Assembly (NCBI GenBank): GCA_016927565.1
Contig: JAFGMK010000019.1
Coordinates: 1 to 57,242 of the forward strand
Direction: 5' to 3'
From: Minisyncoccota bacterium
GTDB taxonomy: Bacteria; Patescibacteriota; Microgenomatia; PFEM01; JAFGMK01
DNA length: 57,242 bases
Part shown: piece after piece, positions 5,656-34,589 of the stretch
Numbering within the stretch: position 1 is the stretch's first letter
How the letters are laid out: the number at the start of each line of letters is the position of its first letter
The notes under the pieces: model-generated
The model's database searches: none
What the model was told of the DNA's origin: nothing
What the model saw: the letters and a program-made list of their open reading frames with translations, nothing else
Translations under genes and position numbers: made by a program

Positions 5656-6429
5656 ATGAAGCTTCAGAAACTGGAGCAGTTTTTGAAAAATTACTGGGGA
5701 AAAGATTTTTTAACTAAATGGCAGAAAAAAGATGATCATGGCGCCAATGGTCTCCAGGTCGGCGGCCGGGAAAATATCAAAAAAATCGCCTTTGGAGTCA
5801 GCTGCAACGCCGATTTTTTACATCACGCTTTACATGACGAGGTTGATACTTGTATTTTTCATCACGGCTTAGATACTCGGTTTCCTCAAATGCTGATGCC
5901 GGAATATCTCCGAAAGCGTTTTAAACTGATTCTTGAAAACAATCTTAATATCTTTGGTTACCACGGAGCGATGGATGCCCATCCTAAACACGGCCACAAT
6001 ACCCTGATCTTAAAAGAGCTGGGAGTAAAAATTCTAGGCCCAGTTATGGACGAATGGGGTTATTATGGGGTTTTGCCAAGTCCCAGAAAACTCATTGCGA
6101 TCGGCAATCAATGCCGCCGGCTGTTTGATCACGAAGTCTTTGTTGAAGGCAATCCCGATCGGAAAATCAAAAGAGTTGCTGTTTGTTCCGGCGGCGGCAT
6201 TCCCGGCAGAGAAGAAGTGGTGAATTTTGTTACTAAAAAAATTGATCTTTACATTACCGGCGTTATTTCCGAGAGCCGGCCTCACATGTTTTCCGAAATG
6301 GGCATGGCCTATTTTGCCTGCGGCCATTATGCCACTGAAAAAATCGGGGTTTTAGAACTTGAAAAACAAATTAAAAAAACCTTTCCGGAAATAAAAACCG
6401 TTTTTATTGACATCAATAATCCTATTTAG
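5656..6429 (+). CDS. Nif3-family dinuclear metal-centre protein
   Basis: ANGLQVGG and HHG motifs, C-terminal GHYATE, length about 257 aa; AGGAGG RBS. Confidence 0.85.
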   Translation: MKLQKLEQFLKNYWGKDFLTKWQKKDDHGANGLQVGGRENIKKIAFGVSCNADFLHHALHDEVDTCIFHHGLDTRFPQMLMPEYLRKRFKLILENNLNIFGYHGAMDAHPKHGHNTLILKELGVKILGPVMDEWGYYGVLPSPRKLIAIGNQCRRLFDHEVFVEGNPDRKIKRVAVCSGGGIPGREEVVNFVTKKIDLYITGVISESRPHMFSEMGMAYFACGHYATEKIGVLELEKQIKKTFPEIKTVFIDINNPI

Positions 6430-6430
6430 G

Positions 6431-6466
6431 AATAAAGGCTAATCCTTTATTCTTTTGGTTTTTTAT
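6431..6466 (+). terminator. intrinsic terminator
   Basis: AATAAAGG-CTAAT-CCTTTATT hairpin followed by a T-rich tract. Confidence 0.5.
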
Positions 6467-6493
6467 TATTTATTCTTAATTTAAGGAGTGGTT

Positions 6494-7060
6494 ATGATCT
6501 CAAGAGAGGAAGCTTTAAAGTTCTTAAAAGAGCAGATTGAAAACAAAAACATCATCAAGCACATGATTGCCTGTGAAGTCATAATGCGGGCTTTGGCCAA
6601 GCGTTTTGAACCGGGAAAAGAAGAAGTTTGGGCGATGGCCGGTTTGTTGCATGACGGCGATTACCGGGATGATGTTCCTCCGGACCAGCAGGGAATCAAA
6701 GTTAGTCAGATGTTAGAAGCGAGGGGTTTTCAAATTCCTGAAGAAATGAAACAAACAATGGCTGCCCATAATTGGGGAAATACCGGCGTGGAGCCAAAAT
6801 CAAAGATGGATTGGTCGTTATTTTGTGGTGATTCCTTAACCGGCTTGATTGTCGCCACTGCTTTGGTTCATCCGGAGCGGAAATTGGCTCGAATTACGGT
6901 CGAGTCAATTTTAAAAAAGTTCAAAGACAAAGCCTTTGCCCGGGGTACCCGGCGGAAAGAAATTGCTCTTTGTGAGGAGAAACTTGGGATTCCTCTGAAT
7001 GAATTTATGGCGATTGGCCTTAAGGCAATGCAAGATGCCGCTGATGAATTGGGGCTTTAA
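6494..7060 (+). CDS. HD-domain phosphohydrolase
   Basis: LLHDGDY HD motif; AAGGAG RBS 5 nt before ATG 6494. Confidence 0.75.
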   Translation: MISREEALKFLKEQIENKNIIKHMIACEVIMRALAKRFEPGKEEVWAMAGLLHDGDYRDDVPPDQQGIKVSQMLEARGFQIPEEMKQTMAAHNWGNTGVEPKSKMDWSLFCGDSLTGLIVATALVHPERKLARITVESILKKFKDKAFARGTRRKEIALCEEKLGIPLNEFMAIGLKAMQDAADELGL

Positions 7061-20621: not shown

Positions 20622-21299
20622 ATGATCCGGTTTAAAAAAGTCTCCAAAAAATTTGGCGAAGTGACTGCCTTGGAGGAGGTTAATTTTGAAGTGGCGCCTC
20701 AGGAATTTGTTTTCTTGACCGGACCATCGGGTTCGGGGAAAACAACCCTTATCAGATTGATTACCCGGGAACTCCGGCCGACTTCGGGAGAAATTTTCGT
20801 TAACGATCTTAATCTTAACAATTTGCAAGGGCGGAACCTTTTTATTCTCCGCCGGCAGATCGGGGTTGTTTTCCAGGATTTTAAACTTTTGCTGGACCGG
20901 ACGATTAGGGAAAATGTGGCCTTAGTTTTAGAAGTGGCCGGCAAGGACATCAGCCGGAAAGATCGGGTAGAAGAAGTCCTGGAACAAGTCGGAATTTTGG
21001 AACAAGCTGATTTTTTCCCTTCCCAGTTGGCGGGCGGCGAGCTCCAACGGGCTTGCCTGGCTCGGGCTTTGGCGGCTGATCCGGAGATATTGATTGCTGA
21101 TGAACCCACCGGTAATCTGGATATTACAACTGCCTGGCAAATTATCAATCTTTTACAGGCGGCCAATCGTCAGGGCAAAACTGTTTTAGTGGCAACCCAT
21201 AATGTCGAGATCGTTGATTCCTTGAAAAGCCGGGTGATTGAGCTTGATAAGGGCCGGATTATAAGAGATGAAAAAAAAGGCGACTATCAAATAAAATGA
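20622..21299 (+). CDS. ftsE: cell-division ABC ATPase FtsE
   Basis: GPSGSGKTT, LAGGELQR and ILIADEPTG motifs; followed by ftsX. Confidence 0.9.
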   Translation: MIRFKKVSKKFGEVTALEEVNFEVAPQEFVFLTGPSGSGKTTLIRLITRELRPTSGEIFVNDLNLNNLQGRNLFILRRQIGVVFQDFKLLLDRTIRENVALVLEVAGKDISRKDRVEEVLEQVGILEQADFFPSQLAGGELQRACLARALAADPEILIADEPTGNLDITTAWQIINLLQAANRQGKTVLVATHNVEIVDSLKSRVIELDKGRIIRDEKKGDYQIK

Positions 21300-22168
21300 A
21301 AAAGATTTTAAGGACCAGCTGGCGCTATATCAGACGGTCTCCCTATCAGGCCCTGGCGGCTATCGGGATTATGAGCCTGACTCTTTATGCGGCCGCTGTT
21401 TTTGTTTTGATTGCCGCCGGCTCGGAAAAAATTTTAGTTCATTTTGAAGCCAGGCCTCAGGTAGTTGCTTTTTTAAAAGATGAAATGGAAAGATCCCAAA
21501 TTGACTCTTTGGTTTTAAAGCTGAAGGCAAGCAGCAAAATTTCTTCGGTGGTTTATGTCAGTAAGGAAGAGGCTTTAGAAATTTACCGCGAGCAAAACAA
21601 GAATGACCCGCTGTTGTTGGAGATGGTCAGTGCGGAGATTTTGCCCGCATCGTTGGAAGTGGCAACTAAGGAAATCTTCCAGCTCGAAGAAATTGCCGGA
21701 TTGCTGAGAAAAGAGCCGGGAGTGGAGGAGGTCAGTTTTCAGGAAGATGTTGTTCAGGTTCTCCAAAAAGCCATTACGAACATCAGGACCGGAGGTATAG
21801 TTTTAATCTCTTTTTTGGTGCTGGTTTCTTTTTCGGTTGTCTTGATGGTGATCGGAATGAAGGCCTCAAGCCGGAGGCGGGAAGTGAAAATCATGAAACT
21901 GGTAGGAGCGACCTCGGGTTATATTCGGGCTCCTTTTTTGCTGGAGGGTATTTTTTACGGGGTAACCAGCGCTTTTTTGGCCTGGGGAGCGGCCTATACT
22001 TCTCTTTTGTATGCAACTCCTTTTTTGATTAATTTCCTTTCCGGAATTGCCCTTCTGCCGGTTTCAGTGGTTTTTATGCTTTTGGTTTTGGCCGGCCTGC
22101 TTTTGGGAGGAGTAATTATTGGGACTTTAGGCAGTTTGATTGCCGTGAGAAGGTACTTGCGCCTTTAA
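21296..22168 (+). CDS. ftsX: cell-division permease-like protein FtsX
   Basis: TM1, large extracytoplasmic loop, three C-terminal TM helices; overlaps the ftsE stop. Confidence 0.85.
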   Translation: MKKILRTSWRYIRRSPYQALAAIGIMSLTLYAAAVFVLIAAGSEKILVHFEARPQVVAFLKDEMERSQIDSLVLKLKASSKISSVVYVSKEEALEIYREQNKNDPLLLEMVSAEILPASLEVATKEIFQLEEIAGLLRKEPGVEEVSFQEDVVQVLQKAITNIRTGGIVLISFLVLVSFSVVLMVIGMKASSRRREVKIMKLVGATSGYIRAPFLLEGIFYGVTSAFLAWGAAYTSLLYATPFLINFLSGIALLPVSVVFMLLVLAGLLLGGVIIGTLGSLIAVRRYLRL

Positions 22169-22173
22169 CCGCT

Positions 22174-23382
22174 GTGTTTTACTTTTTAAAAAAAATTCCG
22201 TTTTTCTTTATCCTTCTGCTTCTGGGCCTGGTCATTATTCTGAGACCGGATTATTCGTGGGCGATTACCCAAACTGAGTGTGAGCAAAAAGTCGGCCGGG
22301 AAGATTTGGATCTGGGTCAGTTGGAAGAGTGCCAGCGCCTTTTTGAAACTCTGATGGAAGCCGCTCAAAAGCAGGAAAGAGATTTGGGTTCGGAGGTGAA
22401 TCGTTTTAATAGCCAGATCTCGCTGACTAATACCCAGATTGCCCAGAAAAATGAACAAATCAAATTACTGGAGGAAGAGATTGAACTTTTGGCCGAAAGG
22501 GTAACCAGGCTGGATGAGGCTTTGGATAAAATTGCAATCCTGCTGGCGAGGCGGATAGAACAAAGTTATAAAAAGGGTAAAGCTGATCCGCTCCTCATTC
22601 TTTTTTCTTCTCAAAGTTTTCCTCAATTTTTGGCCCGATTTAAATATTTTCGGGTGGTTCAGCTTCATGATCAAAGATTGGCCATTCAGATGGCAGAAGC
22701 CAAAGAAAATTATCACCAGCAAAAAGAATTTAAGCAGGTTAAACAGGAAGAACTGGATCAGGTGAAGCAAAAGTTGGAGCTGGACCGGGAAAAGTTTTCC
22801 CGCCAAAAAAAAGACAAAGAAAGATTTTTAGCTGAAACCCAAGGCAACAAAGAACATTTCCGTCAGCTGCTGGCAGTTACCCGGGCTGAAGTGGACGCTA
22901 TCCAGCGAATCGCGGCCGGAGAGGGTGAATGCGCTCAGATGAGCCGGGTTAATCAGGGTGACAGGGTTGCCACTTTGATCAGTGGTCCTTCTGCCTGTTC
23001 AACCGGCACTCATCTTCATTTTGAGGTCAGGGAGGGGGATGAAGTCAGGAATCCGTTTTCCTACCTCCGGCCGATTACTCTTCTTGATGATTCCGGCGGT
23101 GATCCTCATCAGGCCAGCGGTGATTGGGAATGGCCGCTTAATGAACCGATCAGATTTAACCAGGGATTTGGGCCGGGAACAGCAGCGATTCGGGCCAGAA
23201 TTGTCTGGTATGATTTCCATACCGGCATTGATATTGTTTCTGAGCAGTTGACCGTCAAAGCGGTTAAACCCGGCGATCTCTATCGTTGTTCGATTCCCTG
23301 CGGGGGAGGAAATCTGAAATACGTTAAAGTTGACCATGAAGATTCAAATTTGAACAGCTACTATTTGCATGTCAATTATTAA
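22174..23382 (+). CDS. coiled-coil M23 peptidase (EnvC/PcsB-like), domain order apparently permuted
   Basis: Signal/TM, about 200 aa of heptad-rich sequence, then STGTHLHFEV (23011-23025) located upstream of HTGIDI (23218-23232). The ORF ends at YYLHVNY. Confidence 0.8.
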   Translation: MFYFLKKIPFFFILLLLGLVIILRPDYSWAITQTECEQKVGREDLDLGQLEECQRLFETLMEAAQKQERDLGSEVNRFNSQISLTNTQIAQKNEQIKLLEEEIELLAERVTRLDEALDKIAILLARRIEQSYKKGKADPLLILFSSQSFPQFLARFKYFRVVQLHDQRLAIQMAEAKENYHQQKEFKQVKQEELDQVKQKLELDREKFSRQKKDKERFLAETQGNKEHFRQLLAVTRAEVDAIQRIAAGEGECAQMSRVNQGDRVATLISGPSACSTGTHLHFEVREGDEVRNPFSYLRPITLLDDSGGDPHQASGDWEWPLNEPIRFNQGFGPGTAAIRARIVWYDFHTGIDIVSEQLTVKAVKPGDLYRCSIPCGGGNLKYVKVDHEDSNLNSYYLHVNY

Positions 23383-23433
23383 CCGTTAAGAAAATTAGGG
23401 ATTCAATAAAAAATAATAAATTAAAATGGAAGG

Positions 23434-24627
23434 ATGACTGCCCGGAAAATTATTCCTTACTTGAGAGGGTTTTTTTTTAACGATAAAAGATTCTGTTTAA
23501 TTTTTTTTTGGCTGATTTTCTTGTTTTCTTCTTTCCCGCAAATAGTTTCTGGCCAGCTGGTGATGAGTGAATTTTCTCCTTTAAGCTCCGAAGCTGATTG
23601 GGTGGAAATTTATAATTCAGGAGAAGAACCGGTTAATCTCGGGGAATATTTTTTAATTGACGCGGCCGGCAATCAGAATAATTTCCCGGCTTGCGATCTT
23701 TGTTCCCGGGGTTTTTTCTCTCTTGACTGGAATAATCGTCTTAATAATTCCGGTGACAGAATTATTCTGAAAAAAGGGGAGCTGGAAATTGATTGCGTGG
23801 CTTACAACAGCGGTCCGTTTTGCCGGGATCGGGAAATTGATTTACCTGATTTGAATGAAGAATTTCCTTACGGAGCCAGAAATTTTGATGATTCGGGTGA
23901 ATGGGTCAGAAGCGATCGGGCGGACAAAGCCGGTAACTCTGATTGTCAATTATTACCCAGCCCGAATCCTTCTCCTTTGCCGACAACGACTGCCGCGCCG
24001 ACCCCGACGATTGCTCCTGTCGCTACTCTTCCTTTGCCGACGCCCAGCCCGGTTCCGGTTACTGCTACCGGCAAAATTAATGAAGTAAAAAATGAAGCGG
24101 GGGTTATTGTCAATCAGGTTGAAATTTATCTTGACGGCGCCTACATTAACCATTGGGCGCCGGAAGTTTTGACTTTTGGTGAAAATCGATATTGCAACGA
24201 CGCCGGGACGGTTGCCTGTTCTTTGGGAAGCCATCTTATCAGTCTCGAAAAAAGCGGCTATGAAACTTGGCAGACGACGGTGGAAGTTGAGGCCGGCGAT
24301 TATTTTGAACTGGACCCGGTTTTGGCTGATTTAGAGCCGACTCCGCTCCCGAGTCCGACGGTTTTTCCCAGTGCCACTCCGACTCCTCCAATAACTCCAA
24401 TTGTTTTTTCCTCGCCGGCGCCAGCCGTTGAGTTGACCGGCCCGGCTGCCTCGGAAGCTTCTAAATCAAGCTTGAATTTTTTTCCCGAGGAAGCTTCGTC
24501 GGGCCAGAGTGATCAGAGTGAAAAAGGATCGGTCCTGGGAGAATCTGCTTCAACCAAAAGGCCCTTTTTCATTTTAGCCGGTTCGGGTTTGGTTTTAATC
24601 GGGCTGGCGCTGGCATTCTTCAGATAG
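23434..24627 (+). CDS. secreted lamin-tail-domain (LTD) / PEGA-like surface protein
   Basis: SEFSP..DWVEIYN..GDRIIL LTD motifs, Pro/Thr linkers, PEGA-like segment (YLDGAY..GSHLISLEKSGY). C-terminal LAGSG plus hydrophobic tail plus R. Confidence 0.7.
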   Translation: MTARKIIPYLRGFFFNDKRFCLIFFWLIFLFSSFPQIVSGQLVMSEFSPLSSEADWVEIYNSGEEPVNLGEYFLIDAAGNQNNFPACDLCSRGFFSLDWNNRLNNSGDRIILKKGELEIDCVAYNSGPFCRDREIDLPDLNEEFPYGARNFDDSGEWVRSDRADKAGNSDCQLLPSPNPSPLPTTTAAPTPTIAPVATLPLPTPSPVPVTATGKINEVKNEAGVIVNQVEIYLDGAYINHWAPEVLTFGENRYCNDAGTVACSLGSHLISLEKSGYETWQTTVEVEAGDYFELDPVLADLEPTPLPSPTVFPSATPTPPITPIVFSSPAPAVELTGPAASEASKSSLNFFPEEASSGQSDQSEKGSVLGESASTKRPFFILAGSGLVLIGLALAFFR

Positions 24628-24666
24628 ACTTTGTTATACTACTTGTTAAGTCTTTCGGGGTTTTAA

Positions 24667-25077
24667 ATGAAGGTTAAAACTTTCTTGGTAAACTGGGGGC
24701 CGCTTTGCTTTTGGGCAGGGTTGATTTTTTATCTTTCCTCAATTCCCAATCTTAAAACCAGTCAGGATCCTTTTTGGGATGAGCTGATCAGAAATTTTTT
24801 CCATTTTTTGTTCTATTTTATTTTAGCCCTTTTGGGGCGCCGGCCGCTTAATTCTTTGCCGGCGGGAAAAAAAGACATTCTGGGTTTAGCTCTGGTTTTT
24901 TTTTACTCCCTGACTGATGAGTTTCACCAGCACCTTGTCCCCACCCGGACCTTTCAGATAGCGGATCTTCTGATTGACAATTCAGGTTCTTTGCTGGCGG
25001 TTTTGTTTGCTCGATTTCTCTTGCCTCGGGCGCCGCGATTAATCAAAGACTGGGCTCAGAAACTGGCTCTGCTCTAG
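24667..25077 (+). CDS. VanZ-family membrane protein
   Basis: LTDEFHQ..P.R...ADLL.D..G motif, four TM helices. Confidence 0.8.
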   Translation: MKVKTFLVNWGPLCFWAGLIFYLSSIPNLKTSQDPFWDELIRNFFHFLFYFILALLGRRPLNSLPAGKKDILGLALVFFYSLTDEFHQHLVPTRTFQIADLLIDNSGSLLAVLFARFLLPRAPRLIKDWAQKLALL

Positions 25078-25110
25078 ATGATGTGGTATAAGAAAAGAAG
25101 GATTTGACCA

Positions 25111-25731
25111 ATGCATTTTCTTAAACCGGAAAAAATCGGCTTTTTTCTGCTTTTCCTGGGTCTGGGACTTTATTTTTATCTGACTGTGCCTTACGGGATC
25201 AGTTTGATCAAACTTGTTTCCCTCGCTGGTTCCGGGGTAAGTTATGCCCTTAAAGATCGTCAGGGTCTCAGCGGTGGGGAGTCAGTTTTGATTAAGCCGG
25301 TCTCAACTAATTTTGGCATAGTTATCACCAGATTGGGAATTAACCGGAAGATTACTCCCGAGGTTAATCTCTATGATCCTCAAAAATTGGCCGGTGCTTT
25401 AAGAGGGGGGCCGGCTCATGCCGGTCTTTCCGCTCTGCCCGGAGAGTTCGGCGCCGTTTTGCTGGTTGGCCATCCGTTGGATAGTTTTTTTAACTTCGCT
25501 CATTTTAACCCTGATTTTTATTTAATTGACAAGTTAGTCATCGGTGATGAGATTGTGATTTTTTACCATGGTTTTGAATATGTCTACCGGGTGACCAAAA
25601 AAGAATTGGTTCCTTCAAACTATCTGGATTTTTTTGATCCGGGCGAGGAAGACAAGCTGGTTTTAGTTTCCGGTTTTCCGCCCGGAATGGCTTTAAAATA
25701 CCGGGTGGTTGAGGCAGAGGAAATCAATTAG
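25111..25731 (+). CDS. sortase-fold homologue lacking the catalytic cysteine
   Basis: N-terminal TM, PGE..LLVGHP (His present), GDEIVIF..YVYRV. LVLVSGFPPG replaces L-x-T-C-x-P (Gly codon 25672-25674 at the Cys position). YRVV Arg retained. Confidence 0.65.
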   Translation: MHFLKPEKIGFFLLFLGLGLYFYLTVPYGISLIKLVSLAGSGVSYALKDRQGLSGGESVLIKPVSTNFGIVITRLGINRKITPEVNLYDPQKLAGALRGGPAHAGLSALPGEFGAVLLVGHPLDSFFNFAHFNPDFYLIDKLVIGDEIVIFYHGFEYVYRVTKKELVPSNYLDFFDPGEEDKLVLVSGFPPGMALKYRVVEAEEIN

Positions 25732-26389: not shown

Positions 26390-26482
26390 CAATTGAGAAG
26401 AGTTGAATTATACTCGGCCTACCTTTTAAACAAAGAATCTTTTCAGTTTCCTGTTCTTTCTGCCCCAAACTTTTTTAAGACC

Positions 26483-26653
26483 ATGCCGATGACGAGTTCG
26501 TTATATTCCACCCAATCAGTTTCCAAAGAATTGTTAGCGGAAATCAAGAAAACTCTGGAAGGTTTGGACTTCGGCAGTTTAGAAGTTTATGTCGTCAATA
26601 ACCAGGTCACTCAAATTACTAAGCGCCAGATTAAGAAAACCGGTCAGAAGTAG
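26483..26653 (+). CDS. YezD/DUF2292-like small protein
   Basis: GSLEVYVVNNQVTQITKRQIKK resembles the DUF2292 core. The start is uncertain. Confidence 0.55.
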   Translation: MPMTSSLYSTQSVSKELLAEIKKTLEGLDFGSLEVYVVNNQVTQITKRQIKKTGQK

Positions 26654-26664
26654 GTTTTTCCTAC

Positions 26665-26694
26665 TTGACAAAAGTTTTCACAGGCGGTTATATT
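26665..26694 (+). promoter_or_regulatory. strong sigma70-like promoter
   Basis: TTGACA (26665-26670), 18 nt, TATATT (26689-26694). Confidence 0.55.
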
Positions 26695-26699
26695 AACCC

Positions 26700-26845
26700 A
26701 ACAATTTAAATAAAAAGGGCTGGCCGCAAACGGAAGCTGTTTTTATGTGGTTTTGAAGATGGACCAAAAAAACACTGCCGTTAGCGTTTATCAGTTTAGA
26801 TCAAATAGAACTTCTGGAACCTCGATTCTTGGATCGGGGTTTTTT
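26700..26845 (+). ncRNA. candidate small RNA or attenuated leader (unclassified)
   Basis: The promoter above plus an intrinsic terminator (CCTCGAT-TCTTGG-ATCGGGG followed by T6, 26820-26845). No convincing ORF or RBS. Confidence 0.3.
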
Positions 26846-26920
26846 CATGGCCAATTTTTATTAGTTGGGCAGGCAAGTCCTTTTTAAAAAAGGTCTGGCA
26901 AAGGCCTTGTCTGTAACTTG

Positions 26921-27008
26921 TCTTTTTGATCAATGGCTACGGAGGGCAGGCCCTCCCAGGCAAAGGTCTTCGGAGGGGGCAACCCTTCGGAGCAAGCGAT
27001 CAAAAAGA
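26921..27008 (+). promoter_or_regulatory. structured 5' leader immediately upstream of the RBS of the repeat-protein gene
   Basis: Closing helix TCTTTTTGATC / GATCAAAAAGA encloses hairpins GGAGGG-CAGG-CCCTCC and GAGGGG-GCAA-CCCTTC. RBS GGGAGGAGG at 27012-27020. Confidence 0.35.
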
Positions 27009-27032
27009 AACGGGAGGAGGTGAACAAATAAC

Positions 27033-27563
27033 ATGATGAAAAAATTAATCGCCGTTGCCGGTGGTGTGGCTATTTTAGCTACCGCCGTTATGCCGGTAAT
27101 GGCTTTCCGAGGTCGACGTCCAATGCCGCTAAGAGATGTTAATGATGTTGATGTAGTGGTTTATTCCCAATCAACTGCCAATACTGGTGGCAACACTCAA
27201 AGCAGCGAGGCTGAAGCTGAAGATGGCTGGATGCAAACCGCCCGCGCCGGTGGTTCTCAAACCATCGTCACCGGGAATGCTGATTCCGCTGCTATGGCCA
27301 GTGCTATGGTCAGCACCGACGCCAGTTGCCGTTGCCGCCGTGGTCGTGATTGCGACTGCGAGACCAGCAATGTCAATGATGTTGATGCGAATGTAGCCGC
27401 TGATTCTTGGGCTGATACCGGACTTAACCATCAGGAAAGAGAGGCGGAAGCCGAAGATGGTTGCGGGCAGACAGCCGGTGATCGGGGTCCCCAGAGGATC
27501 TTTACCGGTTGGGCCCATGACAGGGCCACCGCTTTTGCGGTAGTCGGGACTGATATTCGCTAA
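27033..27563 (+). CDS. secreted two-repeat protein (uncharacterised A-x-TG-x-N ... TG-x-A repeat family)
   Basis: Signal peptide. Two ~62-aa repeats, each starting VNDVD and containing TG.N.Q..EAEAEDG..QTA...TG.A. Cys/Arg cluster between them. Confidence 0.7.
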   Translation: MMKKLIAVAGGVAILATAVMPVMAFRGRRPMPLRDVNDVDVVVYSQSTANTGGNTQSSEAEAEDGWMQTARAGGSQTIVTGNADSAAMASAMVSTDASCRCRRGRDCDCETSNVNDVDANVAADSWADTGLNHQEREAEAEDGCGQTAGDRGPQRIFTGWAHDRATAFAVVGTDIR

Positions 27564-27575
27564 GAATTCAATTTA

Positions 27576-27597
27576 GGGGGCGCCGGCTGGTGCCCCC
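27576..27597 (+). terminator. GC-rich hairpin between the small and large repeat-protein genes (possible partial terminator)
   Basis: GGGGGCGCC-GGCT-GGTGCCCCC, a 9-bp stem with one G-U pair and no clear U tract. Confidence 0.35.
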
Positions 27598-27660
27598 TGG
27601 CCAGACCTTCTCTTTGCCAAAGCGGTGAAGGGTAAGTAAAAAATTAAAAAAAAGACAGGC

Positions 27661-30561
27661 ATGTTTTTAAAGAAGAAAAAAATCGAAATCAGGCTTTTGG
27701 GGCTTTTTTTAAGCTTTGCTTTAACCTTTAACCCCTTTATTGTTCCCATGGCTTTGGCCGGCGAGGAAGAAATTGAGATCGAAGAACCGACTGTCTCAGT
27801 CGGAGCCGAGTCTCAGGATGAGCCGGCAGAAACTGCTCCGGCTGACGGCGGACCCGTTCCGACTCAGACTGAAACTGAAACAGCCAGTGATTCCACCACT
27901 CAGACCGGTGATGCCCGGTCAAGCGCCCAGACCGAAACCGAGGTCAATGTTCAGCAAGATTGTCTTGAGGGCGGAGTTGATCAGCCAGAGGGGGTTTGCG
28001 ATTTGCCGGAACTTGATTTCGACTGCGGTGAATGCGGTTGCGGCGGCAACAATGACGCCGGTGTCGCCAATGAGGCTTCAGCTTCAGCTGATACCGGCGG
28101 AAATGCGGTCACCGGCAGTGAGGGAGAGGCCGATTTGACTACCGGTGATGCCACTGCCAGCGCTTCAGCCCAAAACACCGTTAATAAAAATACCTTCCTG
28201 ATAGAATCTCCTTTAGAAGCGACCGCCAGTGCTCAGGAGGCCAGCGGCAGCGCCTCAGAGGCGAGTTCGAGCGCCCGGCCGGAGGGAGAAACCGAAGAAG
28301 AGCGAACCGGCTGCGGTGAAGATGTCGATTCGGGCCCGGAAAATGAAATTATCAACCAGAATCAGGCCGCGGTGACTAATAATCTGACGGCTGAGGCCAA
28401 TACGGGTGCTAATCAGGCTGATGATAATCAGGGTGGGGCAACGGTCGAAACCGGCGATGCCCGGGCTCTGGCCAACTTGTTGAACTTCATCAATGCCAAT
28501 ATTGTCGGGTCGCAATTTGAAATTATGCTGGATAATTATCTTGACGGGTATGAGGGCGAGCTTGATTTGAATCAGATTTGGCAGGAGATGCTTGGCGAGG
28601 GGGGCGATTGGCAATTGATCGAAAAGGACGGCCGCTTCTTTTTGGTTTGGAATAACAATGTTGCCAGCTTGGTTAATGAGGTTAAGGTTGCCGCTTCAAC
28701 CGGCGGCAATCAGGCTGATGACAACGGCGGTGAAACGGCAATCACGACCGGCAGTGCTCAGGCTTTGGCTAATGTCGTTAATCTGGTTAACCTTAATTTA
28801 ATCGGCTCCCAATTCTTTTTAGGAGTTTTTAACATCCTGGGCGACTTTACCGGTGATTTGATTTTGCCGCGGCCGGAAAATTTCCTGCCGTCGGTCGGAG
28901 AAGCCGGCTCGACGGAAGGCGGAGTTGAATTTCTCAATCATAATCAAGCCGGAATCAGCAGCCGGGTTTCCGCGGAAGCAGATACCGGTCATAATCAGTC
29001 TGCCGGAAACGAGGGCTCAACTTTGACTACTACCGGCGGCGCCGTGGCCCGGACTAATGTTTTTGAATGGGTCAATACGAATGTTAGTCAGAATTACTGG
29101 TTTACAACAGTAGTAAATCATCTTGGTTCCTGGTTCGGCGGCACTTTGAACTGGTCGGCTCCGGGTTCCTGGAATCCGGGCGACGACAATCTGATGACTG
29201 CTTACCAGATTATTCCTTCTCCTTCTCCGGAAGAGGCTGAAACAGCCGCTGATTCGGGGGCGGTAGTCAATCAAAATCAGGCGACTGTTGAAACTAAAAT
29301 TGATGTATCCGCCGCCACCGGCGGCAATCAGGCTGATGACAATCAGGGCGAAGCGGTGATAAAAACCGGCAGCGCCCGGGCTTTGGCTAATCTTTTTGAT
29401 CTGGTAAATTTTAATTTTTTAGGCGGCCGGTCATTTTTAGGGCTGATTAACATTCTGGGCAATTGGCGGGGAAATGTTGTTTTTGCCTATCCCGATGTTG
29501 TTGTTTCTTTGACTAACGGCTTAGGCGAGGTTCAGGTTGGGGAAATGACCAGTTTTACCGTCAGTTACCGGAATCAGGGCTATGACCTGGCGGAATTTGT
29601 TTGGGCCCAGCTTCAGTTTCCTCCCGGAATAGCTTATGTCAGTGATACCAGCGGGATGAGTCCGAATATTAACGGCCAAGACTGGTCCTGGTTTCTGGGT
29701 GATCTGGAAAGAGGTGAATCAGGCCAGTTTAAGGTGACGGTTCGAGTTGAGCCTGACTATAACCCAGTGGCGACGCTTGGTTTTTGGCAGGGTTTTAAAA
29801 ACATTTTTAGTTCCCGGGTTTATGCCGCTGAGCCGAGACGGGAATACCCTCTGATTGTCAATGCCGCCATTGCCACTCCGGACCCGGAGTCCAATCTTGA
29901 AAATAATCTTGCTTCGGTCCGGACAATTGTTTTTTATCCTGAAGAAACGCCCGAATTGGTTGAAGAAGAAAAAGATGCCGGAGGAATTGATCCCCGCCTG
30001 CCTGTTTTGAAAATCAGCGGCTGGAATAATGTGGCTGAATTTGTTTATCCCGGAGATACGGTTACTTTTGAAATCGAAATTAAAAATACCGCCGATGTGC
30101 CCTCCCTGGAAACCATCGTTTATCAGGAGCTTTATAACGGTGTCCCGGACAAGGGTTTCGGTTCTGCCGCTTTTGATATCGGCACTGTCGAGCCGGGCGG
30201 CAAGCTGATTCTTTCTTTCGGCCTTCAATTGGCTGATGACGGGATATTGCCTGCTGGTTTTTATCATACTGAGGCTCAAGCTTACGGCTTTGGTCCGGGA
30301 GGAGAGGAAATTGCCTCAAACATCACCCGAACCGATTTTGCGATTCAATGGAAAGAGATTGCTCCTTTATTTGAAGCCCGGGCCAGCGGCAGGGAAGAAG
30401 AAATTCTGGGATTGATTGATCAGGCGGAGTGTTTGCCGGAAAAGGAAAGTATTTTGCCTTATCTTTTAAGCCTGCTGGTATCTTCTTTCTGGTTAGTCGA
30501 AAAGTCACGTCAGAAAATTGCTCTCCTGCGCCAACCAGCGGATGACTCTGTCCAAAATTAG
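27661..30561 (+). CDS. large secreted repeat protein with CARDB/DUF11-like domains and a C-terminal TM anchor
   Basis: Signal peptide and acidic linker. Four clear repeats plus one degenerate repeat of 60-75 aa: N.N.A.V...A.TGGNQADDN.G.A...TG.A.ALAN...L.N.N..G. Two Ig-like segments (EVQVGEMTSFTVSYRN; YPGDTVTFEIEIKN). Hydrophobic tail plus KSRQK. Confidence 0.8.
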   Translation: MFLKKKKIEIRLLGLFLSFALTFNPFIVPMALAGEEEIEIEEPTVSVGAESQDEPAETAPADGGPVPTQTETETASDSTTQTGDARSSAQTETEVNVQQDCLEGGVDQPEGVCDLPELDFDCGECGCGGNNDAGVANEASASADTGGNAVTGSEGEADLTTGDATASASAQNTVNKNTFLIESPLEATASAQEASGSASEASSSARPEGETEEERTGCGEDVDSGPENEIINQNQAAVTNNLTAEANTGANQADDNQGGATVETGDARALANLLNFINANIVGSQFEIMLDNYLDGYEGELDLNQIWQEMLGEGGDWQLIEKDGRFFLVWNNNVASLVNEVKVAASTGGNQADDNGGETAITTGSAQALANVVNLVNLNLIGSQFFLGVFNILGDFTGDLILPRPENFLPSVGEAGSTEGGVEFLNHNQAGISSRVSAEADTGHNQSAGNEGSTLTTTGGAVARTNVFEWVNTNVSQNYWFTTVVNHLGSWFGGTLNWSAPGSWNPGDDNLMTAYQIIPSPSPEEAETAADSGAVVNQNQATVETKIDVSAATGGNQADDNQGEAVIKTGSARALANLFDLVNFNFLGGRSFLGLINILGNWRGNVVFAYPDVVVSLTNGLGEVQVGEMTSFTVSYRNQGYDLAEFVWAQLQFPPGIAYVSDTSGMSPNINGQDWSWFLGDLERGESGQFKVTVRVEPDYNPVATLGFWQGFKNIFSSRVYAAEPRREYPLIVNAAIATPDPESNLENNLASVRTIVFYPEETPELVEEEKDAGGIDPRLPVLKISGWNNVAEFVYPGDTVTFEIEIKNTADVPSLETIVYQELYNGVPDKGFGSAAFDIGTVEPGGKLILSFGLQLADDGILPAGFYHTEAQAYGFGPGGEEIASNITRTDFAIQWKEIAPLFEARASGREEEILGLIDQAECLPEKESILPYLLSLLVSSFWLVEKSRQKIALLRQPADDSVQN

Positions 30562-30608: not shown

Positions 30609-31493
30609 GTGACCAAAAAAATTTTTAATCTGCTCCTGTTTCTTTTTGTTTTGGGAGTTTTTGGCTTTTCCCTTTACAAGGTTTTAACCATCAGCCGGGT
30701 AATCACTCCGGTTTTTGGAGCCCGCCGGCGGGTGGAATGTGCCGGCGATCTTTGCCAATGGTTTGATAATTGGTGTCTTTGTGATTGGTGCGGTAACAAG
30801 TGGTGTGACCCGGGCTGTCCTTGTCCTCTGCCCGAACCGACACCGACGCCCCCGGCCGGACCGACGCCAACCGGGATTGAACCGACTGTCGCTCCGGTGG
30901 CAACTGCGACTCCTGCTCAACCGACACCGACTGACTCGTTTCCCCTGCCGGCGGAACCGACGCCTGTCCCTCAACAGACAGCGACGCCGGCTCCGGCGAC
31001 CGATTCACCGTCCTCTTCCGGCGGAGTCGGCGGTTCCGGCGATGATCCGGGGACGCCGCCGCACTGCGGTGCTGCTGTTCCCGGGGCACCGGTTTTACTA
31101 AGTGTTACGCCGGCTGATGATGTCGAATTAATCTGGACCGAGGTCAGCCCGGCGACTCATTACAGCATTGTTTACGGGTTGGAAAGCGGCCAATGGCTTT
31201 ACGGAGTGGCAAATACCGGCCGGACAACTAATTTTGTTGTCGACGGCCTGGCGCCGGAAACAGAGTATTGTTTTGCGGTCCGGGCAGTCAACGACTGCGC
31301 TCCGGGACCGCTTTCCAATGTCATTTGCACCGGCCAAGCAGGCGGGGCTTCGCGGGGCCGGGTTCTGGGGGCGACCAGCTTAGCCGGCACCGGCTTTAAC
31401 TGGCGTTTTATTGGTCTGGGAGTTTATACTTTAGGTTGTTTATGTCTCAGTCTGGCGATCAGATTCAGAAAAATCAGCTCAAGCGCAGCTTGA
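30609..31493 (+). CDS. FN3-domain surface protein with LAGTG sorting signal
   Basis: GTG start, TM/signal, Cys-rich segment, Pro/Thr linker, FN3-like domain. LAGTG (31380-31394) followed by an 18-residue hydrophobic stretch and RFRK. Confidence 0.75.
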   Translation: MTKKIFNLLLFLFVLGVFGFSLYKVLTISRVITPVFGARRRVECAGDLCQWFDNWCLCDWCGNKWCDPGCPCPLPEPTPTPPAGPTPTGIEPTVAPVATATPAQPTPTDSFPLPAEPTPVPQQTATPAPATDSPSSSGGVGGSGDDPGTPPHCGAAVPGAPVLLSVTPADDVELIWTEVSPATHYSIVYGLESGQWLYGVANTGRTTNFVVDGLAPETEYCFAVRAVNDCAPGPLSNVICTGQAGGASRGRVLGATSLAGTGFNWRFIGLGVYTLGCLCLSLAIRFRKISSSAA

Positions 31494-32020
31494 ATTTTAA
31501 GCTGATTAGCCAAAAATTTTTCTGGGCGGGAATTATCTTACTAGCGGTTTCTGCCTCGTTCTTAACTTCTTTGCCTCCCTCAGTTGGTTTTTCTCGGCCT
31601 CCGGAATTAGTCGTTGATCCGGTTTTGCTTTTGCCTGAGAAGATTAAGATCGCCTCGGCAGGGATTGATTTGCCGGTGGAGCCGGTAACAGTTAAAGGCA
31701 ACAACTGGCCTCTTTTTGACGAGGCGGCCTCTTATCTGGCCGGGTCAGGCCGGCCTGGTGAAAAAGGAAACATGATTATCTACGCTCATAACCGGTCCGG
31801 GCTCTTCGGCAATTTGAAAAGAGTCGGAGAGGGAGACCTGATCGAAATCGAAGACGGATCGGCCAATCGCTATCTTTATCAGGTGGCTGATTTATTTACA
31901 ATCAACCCTGACCAGGTCGGCATTTTATCCTTCAGTGAGGAATCGATTCTTACTCTTTACACTTGCACCGGCTGGTTTGACCGGCAGCGGCTGGTGATCA
32001 GGGCCAGGTTGAAAAATTAA
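31442..32020 (+). CDS. sortase (transpeptidase)
   Basis: N-terminal TM, IIYAHN (His), TLYTC (Cys), RLVIRA (Arg). Confidence 0.85.
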   Translation: MSQSGDQIQKNQLKRSLNFKLISQKFFWAGIILLAVSASFLTSLPPSVGFSRPPELVVDPVLLLPEKIKIASAGIDLPVEPVTVKGNNWPLFDEAASYLAGSGRPGEKGNMIIYAHNRSGLFGNLKRVGEGDLIEIEDGSANRYLYQVADLFTINPDQVGILSFSEESILTLYTCTGWFDRQRLVIRARLKN

Positions 32021-33305: not shown

Positions 33306-34589
33306 TTAACCCAGCCAGCGATATCCCCGGCCGCGGATTGTTTGGATTAGAGAAGCGGCTATCCCCAGCCTGGCGAGTTTTTTTCTTAGATTGGAAATTG
33401 CCTGATCGATTGCCCAGTCGGAGTATTTATCATAGTATTCCTTTCCCCAAAGGCTTTGAGCAACTGTGTCTCGGGAATGAACAATCAGAGGTTTTCGGGT
33501 AAAGAGAGCCAGAAGCTGAATTTCCTGGAGAGTGAATTTAATCGGGGTCGGTAAGTTATTTATCAGGATTTGGTGTTTTCGGTCGTCAAAAGAGATCAGG
33601 TTTAACTTGCTTTTTTTGTTTTTGATGAATTGAGAAAATAAAGGTGAAAAAATAACCGCCTTTTTGTTTTTGAAAATTACCAGGTTAAAGTTCAGCAATC
33701 TCTGGGGTATGTCTTGTCGGCTGAGGGGAGCTTTATTAGTCAAACCGCGAAGAGCCTGTTTTTCTTTTTTGGTCAGATTTTGCCAAAGGTCTTCCAGGAT
33801 CATTTGGATTTCGGCTTCCTTCAGAAAAAGAGAATTCTCTTTGCTTCCGGCCTGAAGGGGATTTTTATTAAAAATTCGGGCTAAAGATTTTAAAAGATAA
33901 GGGTGGCCGCCGGCCAGTTCAAAAATGATTTTTTTCTTTTCAGCAGAGAGCTGATAATGATAGCGCCGGCAGATTCGGGTGAGGACATGCCGGCTTTCCT
34001 GAAGATCGAGAAGGGGGAAAAAAATGATGTTCTGGCATATTACCTCTCTTAGCTGGCCGTATTTTTGCTGTTTTCGCAGAAATGAGGCGGGAGTGGTGAC
34101 AGTAAAAATAAAATGGAGCCGGGTTTTGTCAATTTCCCAGAGTCTTTTAAGATTATTGAAAAAAACTGCCGGCATTTTTAATTCGTCCAATTTATTAATG
34201 ATCAGAATCAGGTGGTATTCAGCCTTAACCAGCTTTTCCAAAGTTTCTTTTAAAGTTGTCAGAGGATTCCGTTTCTTTGATTTTAGTTTTGTTTTCTTTA
34301 AAATAACGACCTTTTTTTCCTCCAGACAATTAAGAATCAGCCTAAAAAAATAAGCCGGACTTTCCCGGGCCAGTTCGTCATGATCAATAAAACAGCAGAG
34401 GGATTTGCCGAGCTTTAAAAAAGCCGGTCTGCGGCTTTTTCGGGAAAAGTACTTCATCAGGGTTTTTTTGCCGCCATGGGGAATAAAGCAGATGGTGAGG
34501 CTTTCGCCTAGAAGGAGATTTTTTAAAATCAACTCGTTAAAGAAATGTTTTTCCCCGGCCGGGCTTAAAGGAGGAGGTAGTTTTTTCAT
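33306..34589 (-). CDS. P-loop ATPase fused to a C-terminal OmpR/PhoB-type winged-helix DNA-binding domain
   Basis: Walker A-like PHGGKKT and Walker B-like LILIINKLDE. The C-terminus (LTLQEIQLL..., WAIDQAISNLRKKL, IQTIRGRGYRW) is typical of Trans_reg_C. Confidence 0.75.
   Translation of the reverse strand: MKKLPPPLSPAGEKHFFNELILKNLLLGESLTICFIPHGGKKTLMKYFSRKSRRPAFLKLGKSLCCFIDHDELARESPAYFFRLILNCLEEKKVVILKKTKLKSKKRNPLTTLKETLEKLVKAEYHLILIINKLDELKMPAVFFNNLKRLWEIDKTRLHFIFTVTTPASFLRKQQKYGQLREVICQNIIFFPLLDLQESRHVLTRICRRYHYQLSAEKKKIIFELAGGHPYLLKSLARIFNKNPLQAGSKENSLFLKEAEIQMILEDLWQNLTKKEKQALRGLTNKAPLSRQDIPQRLLNFNLVIFKNKKAVIFSPLFSQFIKNKKSKLNLISFDDRKHQILINNLPTPIKFTLQEIQLLALFTRKPLIVHSRDTVAQSLWGKEYYDKYSDWAIDQAISNLRKKLARLGIAASLIQTIRGRGYRWLG

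Follow-up and report, generated by a model that had tools for sequence, protein, structure and literature searches.

An anchored and a secreted protein built from one widespread, previously unnamed repeat form a conserved gene pair in Patescibacteria

A 57,242-nt stretch of contig JAFGMK010000019.1 from a sediment metagenome, referred to here as the window, carries two open reading frames (ORFs) on the same strand, 27033-27563 (176 aa) and 27661-30561 (966 aa), each opening with a hydrophobic segment resembling a signal peptide. A first-pass annotation made from the letters of the DNA had described them as secreted proteins sharing an uncharacterised repeat, and both ORFs were found at the positions it gave. 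We report that the two genes represent a conserved pair, an anchored protein and a secreted protein made from one repeat, and that the repeat family is new and widespread. The host is an uncultured, ultra-small bacterium of the Patescibacteria (candidate phyla radiation), and the closest named relatives are Microgenomates. How the pair might work is put forward tentatively: we lean, at somewhat less than an even chance, towards a two-gene Patescibacteria module in which the large protein would serve as a membrane-bound base or nucleator, and the small one as a secreted subunit, made in excess, that stacks on the anchor to give a fibre or an envelope structure.

The small secreted protein (27033-27563, forward strand, as for all features below unless indicated) is defined by its ORF, its signal peptide and orthologues at the same position. 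The signal peptide spans approximately aa 1-24, with cleavage predicted by eye after PVMA, and the protein lacks a C-terminal hydrophobic segment or anchor. As the annotation had described, the chain consists of two repeats of ~62 aa, and both the repeat profile and self-alignment delimit them: S1 (27135-27320) runs through a strand, a TGGN turn, a long hairpin insertion, a TGNA turn and a further strand, and is followed by S2 (27369-27560). Alignment of the two halves over 62 columns gave 34 identities (55%) and a score of 133, compared with 28 +/- 5.6 for 1000 shuffled sequences (z = 19). The repeats are joined by a Cys-rich 16-aa linker, ASCRCRRGRDCDCETS (27321-27368), recognised by orthologue comparison, in which a C-x(1-4)-C motif is kept in 9/12 orthologues. 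The third strand found in a full repeat of the large protein is missing from both small-protein repeats. By composition the small protein is rich in Ala, Asp, Gly and Arg, and the repeat region of the large protein contains 12.1% Gly, 12.1% Ala and 11.3% Asn; neither protein is especially rich in Thr, and the initial label "Asn/Gly/Thr-rich" is not kept.

The large surface protein (27661-30561), defined by its ORF and a signal peptide at approximately aa 1-33, is laid out as a small-like module, four full repeats, two immunoglobulin (Ig)-like domains and a transmembrane (TM) helix. Repeat starts had been noted at 28050, 28354, 28651, 28936 and 29268, and these correspond to the units named here R0-R4 (aa 126/131, 228/232, 327/331, 422/426 and 533/537). 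A half repeat at aa 77-107 (nt 27889-27981), modelled by AlphaFold 2 (AF2) with a predicted local distance difference test score (pLDDT) >90, had been overlooked. Together with a Cys-rich segment and the degenerate, two-layer R0 (aa 126-182), it makes up an N-terminal small-like module (27889-28206) identified by profile alignment and AF2. The full units that follow were delimited by profile, AF2 and direct-coupling analysis (DCA): the three-strand unit R1 (aa 228-293, 28342-28539), R2 (aa 327-403, 28639-28869), R3 (aa 422-497, 28924-29151), which is the most diverged full unit, and R4 (aa 533-611, 29257-29493), which abuts the first Ig-like domain. Mutual identity among R1, R2 and R4 is 46-54%, and R3 and R0 are both ~35% identical to R4.

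The two Ig-like domains and the TM anchor named at first pass were recovered. Ig-like domain 1 (29494-29940; Pfam, AF2 and Foldseek) belongs to the CLIPPER/DUF11 family (PF01345), the match at aa 612-723 scoring 34.8 bits against a gathering score of 24.6, while Ig-like domain 2 (30001-30345; NCBIfam, AF2 and Foldseek) is of TIGR01451/DUF11 type, the match at aa 795-819 scoring 25.7 bits against a cut-off of 24. Both regions were modelled by AF2 as beta-sandwiches that match tandem Ig-like domains in Foldseek. Inspection by eye of the position of the isopeptide-forming Lys found none in the first strand of domain 1 (VVVSLTNG) and K785 in domain 2, where the family consensus reads LEI; some DUF11 domains are without an intramolecular isopeptide bond (10.1101/2025.04.25.650565). 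The C-terminal TM helix (aa 932-957, 30454-30531), located by AF2 and by comparison of tails, is preceded by a conserved EE(V/I)LG and followed by a basic tail. From these sequence features the large protein is predicted to be exported and held in the membrane through its C-terminal helix; in some family members a peptidoglycan-binding domain stands in place of the TM anchor.

That the same repeat occurs in both proteins, as initially proposed, was borne out by reciprocal profile matches. A six-frame search of the window with the large-repeat profile returned the small ORF as the sole other match (E 6.5e-6; next best 0.12), and the small-family profile matched the large ORF with E 2.7e-19. The best match of the small-protein profile within the large protein falls on the N-terminal module, where positions 34-166 of 170 align with aa 36-176 at 32.9 bits, covering in colinear order the half repeat, the Cys-containing segment and R0. 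By this alignment the outermost part of the large protein (half repeat, Cys linker and R0) reads as a built-in copy of the small protein.

The pairing was assessed across related loci collected with an alignment of 26 closer large-protein sequences. In all of those with upstream flank (13/13), a small ORF of 150-190 aa lies directly upstream of the large gene, and each encodes a signal peptide, two repeats and usually the C-x(1-4)-C linker. When the large-repeat profile was run on all 12 small proteins, scores of 13-47 bits were obtained; among 600 shuffles only two gave any match, with a maximum of 7.4 bits. The small protein of the window is the most diverged of the set (13.3 bits) and shares only 22-54% identity with its orthologues, which is why a word-index search with this protein alone returned zero homologues. 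Small-protein orthologues were therefore collected first by synteny and then by profile, and a search with the resulting small-family profile retrieved 12 further proteins, all labelled "hypothetical", with E values down to 2e-43.

In more distantly related loci, from Minisyncoccia, Parcubacteria and Gottesmanbacteria, the large gene has different repeat paralogues, short or of medium length, beside it. Related loci carry the designations L001 and upwards, and such extra paralogues, of 171-388 aa, were located at L017 827-1498 and 7274-7789, L018 1867-2994 and 3187-3858, and L019 2731-3897; in the one at L018 3187-3858, a Pro/Thr-rich spacer and an LPAAG-like motif precede the C-terminal TM helix. 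Given these extra paralogues and the differing C-termini in distant loci, subunit number and mode of anchoring vary across the phylum.

Sequence searches left the repeat outside any named family, as had been supposed. It has a core of 57 aa (79 with the third strand) and the consensus N.N.A.V.N.V.V.A.TG.N.A..N.G.A.I.TGDA.A.AN..N.VN.N. No Pfam family matched the repeats of either protein at E<=0.1, NCBIfam was likewise empty for the repeat region and the small protein, and relaxing the Pfam threshold to E<=10 for a single repeat (a check proposed at first pass), the repeat consensus, the mature small protein or aa 70-612 of the large protein produced nothing. Against the PDB, neither protein nor a repeat profile built from 56 sequences yielded anything above noise. 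The word index contained 134 homologues of the large protein, 30-48% identical over full length. Where a source names them, the label is "hypothetical", "uncharacterized repeat protein (TIGR01451)" or, once, "peptidoglycan-binding", and where it names an organism, this belongs to Patescibacteria, Parcubacteria, Minisyncoccia or Gottesmanbacteria. When all 1.84 billion 50%-identity representatives were searched exhaustively with a 57-position repeat profile, at least 3,055 proteins were identified at E<=1e-3, 1,705 at <=1e-10 and 553 at <=1e-30, most of them 800-1100 aa long with 5-6 repeats; those that bear a name are "hypothetical proteins" of Patescibacteria. In comparisons of 26-60 species, every repeat keeps Asn or Gly with little or no variation at positions 5, 7, 22, 24, 38 and 51, a pattern that ladders and arcs would produce.

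To describe the fold, the whole large protein was modelled by AF2 from a 60-sequence alignment. Mean pLDDT was 80.8, with repeats >90 and linkers low. Secondary structure assigned to this model by DSSP opens each full repeat with a strand of 20-22 residues, which turns at TG.N into a short hairpin; a TGD turn then leads to a strand of 11 residues and an N.N turn to a strand of 9-14 residues, after which comes a linker of 30-45 aa. A separate model of the four full repeats (aa 224-612) reached a pLDDT of 84.9 and a predicted template-modelling score (pTM) of 0.85, indicating one rigid body rather than beads on a string; the run on the repeat region thus showed repeats packing as one confident body, and the disordered outcome that the annotation had named as refuting its proposal was not seen. 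In Foldseek, the whole model matched only tandem Ig-like domains (integrin legs, RbmA, transglutaminase C-terminal domains), and the repeat model (aa 224-612) matched nothing at E<=1e-3 in the PDB or in BFVD (viral). Below significance, 9/12 weak PDB matches were beta-solenoids or beta-helices (FapC 9nqd, CsgA 8c50, FHA, GH28, SufB/SufD, NeuO), FapC 9nqd with E 0.065, probability 0.02 and TM score 0.07 and CsgA 8c50 with E 2.1. These weak matches show only a local geometry akin to stacked beta structures, not a shared fold. As modelled, the repeat fold is without a solved relative and is probably new.

Coevolution within the repeat was analysed by mean-field DCA on 974, then 833, non-redundant repeat units aligned to the profiles. 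Couplings between strand 1 and strand 4 run antiparallel (i+j = 59-61), and those with z>2 link, in 10/10 cases, odd strand-1 positions (N5, N7, A9, V11, N13, V15, V17, A19) to even strand-4 positions. Strand 4-strand 6 couplings proceed in 5/6 cases through odd strand-4 positions. Opposite faces of strand 4 therefore couple to different strands, which argues for face-to-face layers and not a single sheet. The chemistry of the strands agrees: in strand 1 the residues at even positions are polar and vary, both faces of strand 4 carry apolar residues or Asn, and the contacting faces are Ala-rich. Three-strand units are always trailed by long linkers, and the linker between the two small-protein repeats, which have two strands each, is short. 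Taken together, these observations lend moderate support to a three-layer, solenoid-like rung with Asn ladders. The likeness to curlin or beta-solenoids proposed at first pass is supported only indirectly (pTM 0.85, the weak top Foldseek matches and the parity of couplings), and the pair does not belong to the curlin or Fap families. Couplings among the turn residues G22, N24, G38 and N51 were discounted, as they probably reflect loss of whole motifs in degenerate repeats.

Signals bearing on the relative expression of the two genes were then compared. The small gene is preceded by a strong and invariant Shine-Dalgarno sequence (AGGAGGTGA, 27015-27023), and the ribosome-binding site of the large gene is weak. 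The GC-rich hairpin that the annotation had placed between the genes, at 27576-27597, is real; folding gives an 11-bp stem with a 4-nt loop at 27574-27599, 11 nt past the small-gene stop. The spacer between the genes measures 97 nt, and the 103-nt intergenic fold has a free energy of -35.7 kcal/mol (z = -2.9). In 12/14 loci a hairpin of comparable strength lies directly 3' of the small gene; it is the structure that is conserved, as the hairpin sequences are dissimilar. Such a hairpin could attenuate read-through or protect the upstream transcript. A canonical intrinsic terminator was ruled out, as there is no U tract and a scan with the terminator consensus did not rise above shuffles. Together, the conserved hairpin, the strong small-gene Shine-Dalgarno sequence and the weak large-gene site would fit the production of more small than large protein.

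Upstream of the small gene lie a promoter-like site (TTGACA-18-TATATT, 26665-26694), kept in L001, L002 and L003, and a conserved non-coding leader of ~340 nt (26695-27032) recognised by comparison of three loci. RNAalifold on the three leaders predicted 86 pairs, 23 of them with compensatory changes, and in one helix, TCTTTTTGATC / GATCAAAAAGA, 7/11 pairs are compensated; the small proteins of these leader-sharing loci are only 32-54% identical. Blocks of the leader are identical in the three loci (the window, L003 5890-6278 and L001 6982-7386), one of them being GGGCTGGCCGCAAACGGAAGC (26717-26737). Rfam contained no match to the leader or the intergenic region, and a metagenome scan with the 21-nt leader block found only another contig of the L003 organism. 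The leader is a candidate cis-regulatory RNA or small RNA.

In the mechanism that we favour, each full repeat would form one rung with three long strands face to face, namely strand 1 (~20 aa, N.N.A.V.N.V.V.A), strand 4 (TGDA.A.AN..N.VN.N) and strand 6 (F....N.LG.W.G). Rungs would be stacked in register through Asn ladders and Gly-containing turns, as in curli and Fap beta-solenoids, with the 30-45-aa linkers returning the chain to where the next rung begins. The four full repeats, modelled as one rigid body, lie above a stalk of two CLIPPER/DUF11 Ig-like domains. More tentatively, the small protein, with its strong and invariant Shine-Dalgarno sequence and a hairpin after its stop codon that may attenuate read-through or stabilise the upstream mRNA, would be made in excess. 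Copies of it would then stack through hydrogen bonds between strands, both on the small-like tip of the anchored large protein and on one another. The large protein would thus serve as anchor and nucleator (compare CsgB, FapB and the long chaplins) and the small protein as major subunit (compare CsgA, FapC and the short chaplins), and the product would be a cell-attached fibre or an envelope layer used for structure or attachment. A bolder version, which we regard as rather unlikely, is that Patescibacteria possess a functional-amyloid-like system of their own, unrelated in sequence to curli, Fap, chaplins or TasA, with an unsolved fold, in which a 15-kDa two-rung subunit cross-beta-stacks on an anchored nucleator with a built-in subunit copy at its tip; the product would be a core fibre or sheath of the envelope in these ultra-small epibionts, possibly the fibres or surface layer seen on their cells.

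Several observations count against this mechanism. Polymerisation and contact between the small and large proteins are proposed solely from sequences and single-chain models. Parallel in-register stacking is inferred from parity, chemistry, linker lengths and the nature of weak Foldseek matches (TM score ~0.07). The AF2 models and DCA draw on one coevolution signal and hence are not independent of each other. In-register covariation shows no clear excess in adjacent repeats (mean Z 1.9) over non-adjacent ones (1.6), with R2-R4 highest, and the comparison is confounded by repeat ancestry, which may account for the signal in place of contact. On the side of expression, the hairpin is missing in two loci, where the genes sit 10 or 26 nt apart, and no hairpin carries a U tract, so that its effect is putative. 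Finally, the locus was absent from the contigs of three metatranscriptome runs of the same sediment study.

The pair might instead represent a self-contained stalked adhesin, in which the large protein alone binds a host or substrate and its small paralogue caps the beta edge, competes with or regulates it, or binds independently. We consider this doubtful, albeit credible. CLIPPER/DUF11 domains are typically the stalks of fibrillar adhesins (10.1101/2025.04.25.650565), the head is confidently modelled as a monomeric body, and strand 1 turns a polar, variable face outward, which suits a binding or exposed surface; cultivated Patescibacteria are also epibionts. However, the module is conserved across very diverse Patescibacteria and it is mainly structural residues that are invariant, a pattern that fits a core part of the envelope better, and a 1:1 cap leaves unexplained the built-in small-like tip, the strict pairing and the signals for an excess of small protein. 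A two-dimensional lattice is a related alternative: large and small proteins would together form an envelope layer, comparable to the anchored S-layer pairs of archaea or to the amyloid-like sheath of Methanothrix and Methanospirillum, in which secreted subunits of 150-350 aa co-assemble with variants bearing Ig domains. The envelope genes that surround the pair (FtsEX, M23, LTD/PEGA, VanZ, sortases, an fn3 sortase substrate and CAP), the replacement of the TM anchor by a peptidoglycan-binding domain in some family members, and archaeal sheath proteins that likewise combine a signal peptide with an amyloid-like beta core and in some cases Ig-like domains (PMC11576556) all agree with such a layer, but there was no sequence or fold match to solved S-layer or sheath structures and a 15-kDa two-rung subunit is far below the typical size of an S-layer protein, and we judge it improbable.

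A further alternative concerns the fold itself. The repeats may be long antiparallel beta-hairpin meanders in a large sheet or sandwich, with only a superficial likeness to amyloid-type structures. The uninterrupted strands of 20-22 residues in the DSSP assignment are long for solenoid rungs, couplings at i+j = 59-61 are equally expected from a hairpin, and the Foldseek TM score to solenoids is only ~0.07. Such an arrangement is nevertheless hard to reconcile with the strict segregation of couplings by parity (10/10 and 5/6), with a strand 1 that is amphipathic next to a strand 4 that is apolar on both faces, with buried Asn that are invariant at equivalent positions of every repeat, or with long return linkers that always follow three-strand units but not two-strand ones, and we give it little weight. 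It may also be asked whether the small ORF is non-coding or its likeness to the large protein a chance product of low complexity, since the copy in the window is the most diverged (13.3 bits) and has no word-index homologue. Against this, an orthologue of the same architecture occurs at the same position in 13/13 loci, the profile adds 12 more (E to 2e-43), the internal repeat has z = 19 and the Shine-Dalgarno sequence is invariant; these conservation data refute it, and its remaining probability is negligible.

The pair may be compared with several known systems. Like the proteins described here, FapC is made of imperfect repeats some 50-60 aa long, and for each of these a single cross-beta layer of several strands is proposed (PMC12392863); Asn/Gln and Gly are conserved at the arcs, and the linkers between repeats are variable and poorly ordered. 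FapC rungs are described as stacking in parallel on one another with Asn ladders (PMC12392863), the arrangement proposed here. In Pseudomonas, too, two paralogous repeat proteins are encoded side by side (FapC as major subunit and FapB as nucleator), and FapC 9nqd was the best, non-significant, Foldseek match. In contrast to Fap, the strands of the present repeat are much longer and there is no sequence relationship: neither Pfam nor PDB sequence searches gave a match to Fap and the Foldseek match to 9nqd was not significant. The putative nucleator is a 966-aa, membrane-anchored protein with an Ig-like stalk, FapF outer-membrane secretion machinery is absent from a host that has no outer membrane, and the amyloid is in this case putative.

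Curli share strand-turn-strand repeats that are rich in Asn, Gly and Ala, with small residues facing inward, and a cell-bound nucleator paralogue alongside a secreted major subunit (CsgB/CsgA). The two-strand rungs of the small protein, with their short linker, recall CsgA, of which 8c50 was the second Foldseek match. The repeat is, however, 57-80 aa long versus ~22 aa (19-23) in curlin, and the curlin pattern S-x5-Q-x-G-x-G-N-x-A-x3-Q was not matched; Curlin_rpt (PF07012) gave no match even at E<=10, and Pfam scans of ten neighbouring genes and of related loci detected no Csg components of the csgE/F/G type. The chaplins of Streptomyces (DUF320) comprise long, sortase-anchored proteins (ChpA-C) and short, secreted ones (ChpD-H) that assemble at the surface. 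They resemble the present pair in belonging to a monoderm, in deriving long, anchored multi-copy proteins and short secreted proteins from one domain, and in having sortase genes nearby. Yet the sequences are unrelated, with no Pfam match of either protein to the chaplin profile (DUF320), the large protein has a TM helix and no LAXTG/LPXTG signal, and the repeat is longer and Asn-rich.

With CLIPPER adhesins the large protein has in common a signal peptide, a distal functional region, an Ig-like stalk and a C-terminal anchor (10.1101/2025.04.25.650565), but the stalk has only two domains, inspection by eye finds no first-strand isopeptide Lys in domain 1 and no conservation of it in domain 2, and the distal part consists of a new repeat and is accompanied by a small paralogue of its own. 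The SH proteins of Methanothrix and Methanospirillum are secreted, 150-350 aa long, have an amyloid-like beta core and Ig-bearing paralogues, and their disulfides are implicated in assembly (PMC11576556); the Cys-rich linkers conserved in both of our proteins may be compared with these disulfides. SH cores, however, are described as two sheets of six antiparallel strands and come from a different domain of life, and neither the fold nor the sequence comparison gave a match. The pair is thus not a member of the curlin, Fap or chaplin families, and its C-terminal domains are CLIPPER/DUF11. What is new is the repeat, probably its fold, and the unusual architecture of the putative anchored nucleator, within what is probably a known kind of system, the cross-beta or solenoid-type surface repeats.

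A large part of bacterial diversity belongs to the Patescibacteria, which live attached to other cells and whose surface proteins mostly lack annotation. The module described here is widespread, lies in a conserved envelope locus and has a confidently predicted fold lacking a solved relative. If the small protein does polymerise on the anchored large one, this monoderm-like group with reduced genomes would possess a new lineage of functional amyloid or of beta-solenoid fibre, and the pair would offer a concrete molecular entry point into the way the cells construct their surface or attach to hosts. At a minimum, a family should be defined for the repeat, comprising the 57-aa core profile and the 79-aa three-strand profile, and another for the small protein.

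Among closer relatives the gene order is FtsE/FtsX, M23 peptidase, LTD, VanZ, (sortase), small, large, (fn3, sortase), CAP and an 86-aa membrane protein, and Pfam assigned the ten neighbouring genes in the window to LTD, VanZ, sortase, fn3, CAP and a regulator. Of the small-large-sortase neighbourhood singled out at first pass, the pairing of small and large genes held throughout, but a sortase gene is adjacent in only ~6/15 loci. LPXTG and LAXTG signals are absent from both the large and the small protein, the tail of the large protein being a TM helix followed by basic residues. Considering both this adjacency and the occurrence of an LPXTG/LAXTG signal only in the fn3 neighbour, the sortases are probably not dedicated to the pair. 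That fn3 protein (30609-31493) ends in VLGATSLAGTG, a hydrophobic segment and RFRK, a class-E-like LAXTG signal, and the next gene (31436-32020) encodes a sortase; its orthologues carry TLADTG, TLGVTG or TLAGTG. Judging by its tail, the fn3 protein, and not the repeat pair, looks like the local sortase substrate.

A motif (E/Q)(V/I)LG occurs 8-17 residues before the C-terminal TM helix of the LTD/PEGA, large repeat and fn3 proteins, both in the window (24540-24627, 30400-30460 and 31400-31440) and in L001, L003, L004, L007, L008, L010 and L013, and may be a lineage-specific processing or sorting signal. The envelope string upstream of the pair (20622-25731) encodes an FtsE-like ABC ATPase, FtsX, an M23 peptidase, an LTD+PEGA surface protein, VanZ and a sortase; synteny covers the string in L001 and L002 and part of it in L006, L007 and L011. 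Upstream of the leader, an ORF at 26393-26653 resembles DUF2292 (a weak Pfam match, obtained with the L001 orthologue) and is kept in L001, L003, L004 and L005. Just downstream of the surface cluster, a convergent gene (33306-34589, reverse strand) encodes an AAA/NACHT-like ATPase with a C-terminal winged helix (Trans_reg_C).

Some related loci call for comment on their records. In L007 the small orthologue (6421-6983) is seemingly cut to 123 aa and lies ~190 nt from the large gene, which may reflect a frameshift or assembly error. Titles given to related genome loci include Amesbacteria, Shapirobacteria and Patescibacteria. The records of L003, L005, L006, L010, L011, L013 and L014, which contain clear orthologues of the patescibacterial locus, are titled Bathyarchaeia archaeon, uncultured Gammaproteobacteria or Bacteroidales and are probably mis-binned or mislabelled contigs of metagenome-assembled genomes. 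The small protein of L003 is also encoded by L016, a metagenome contig of 847 kb.

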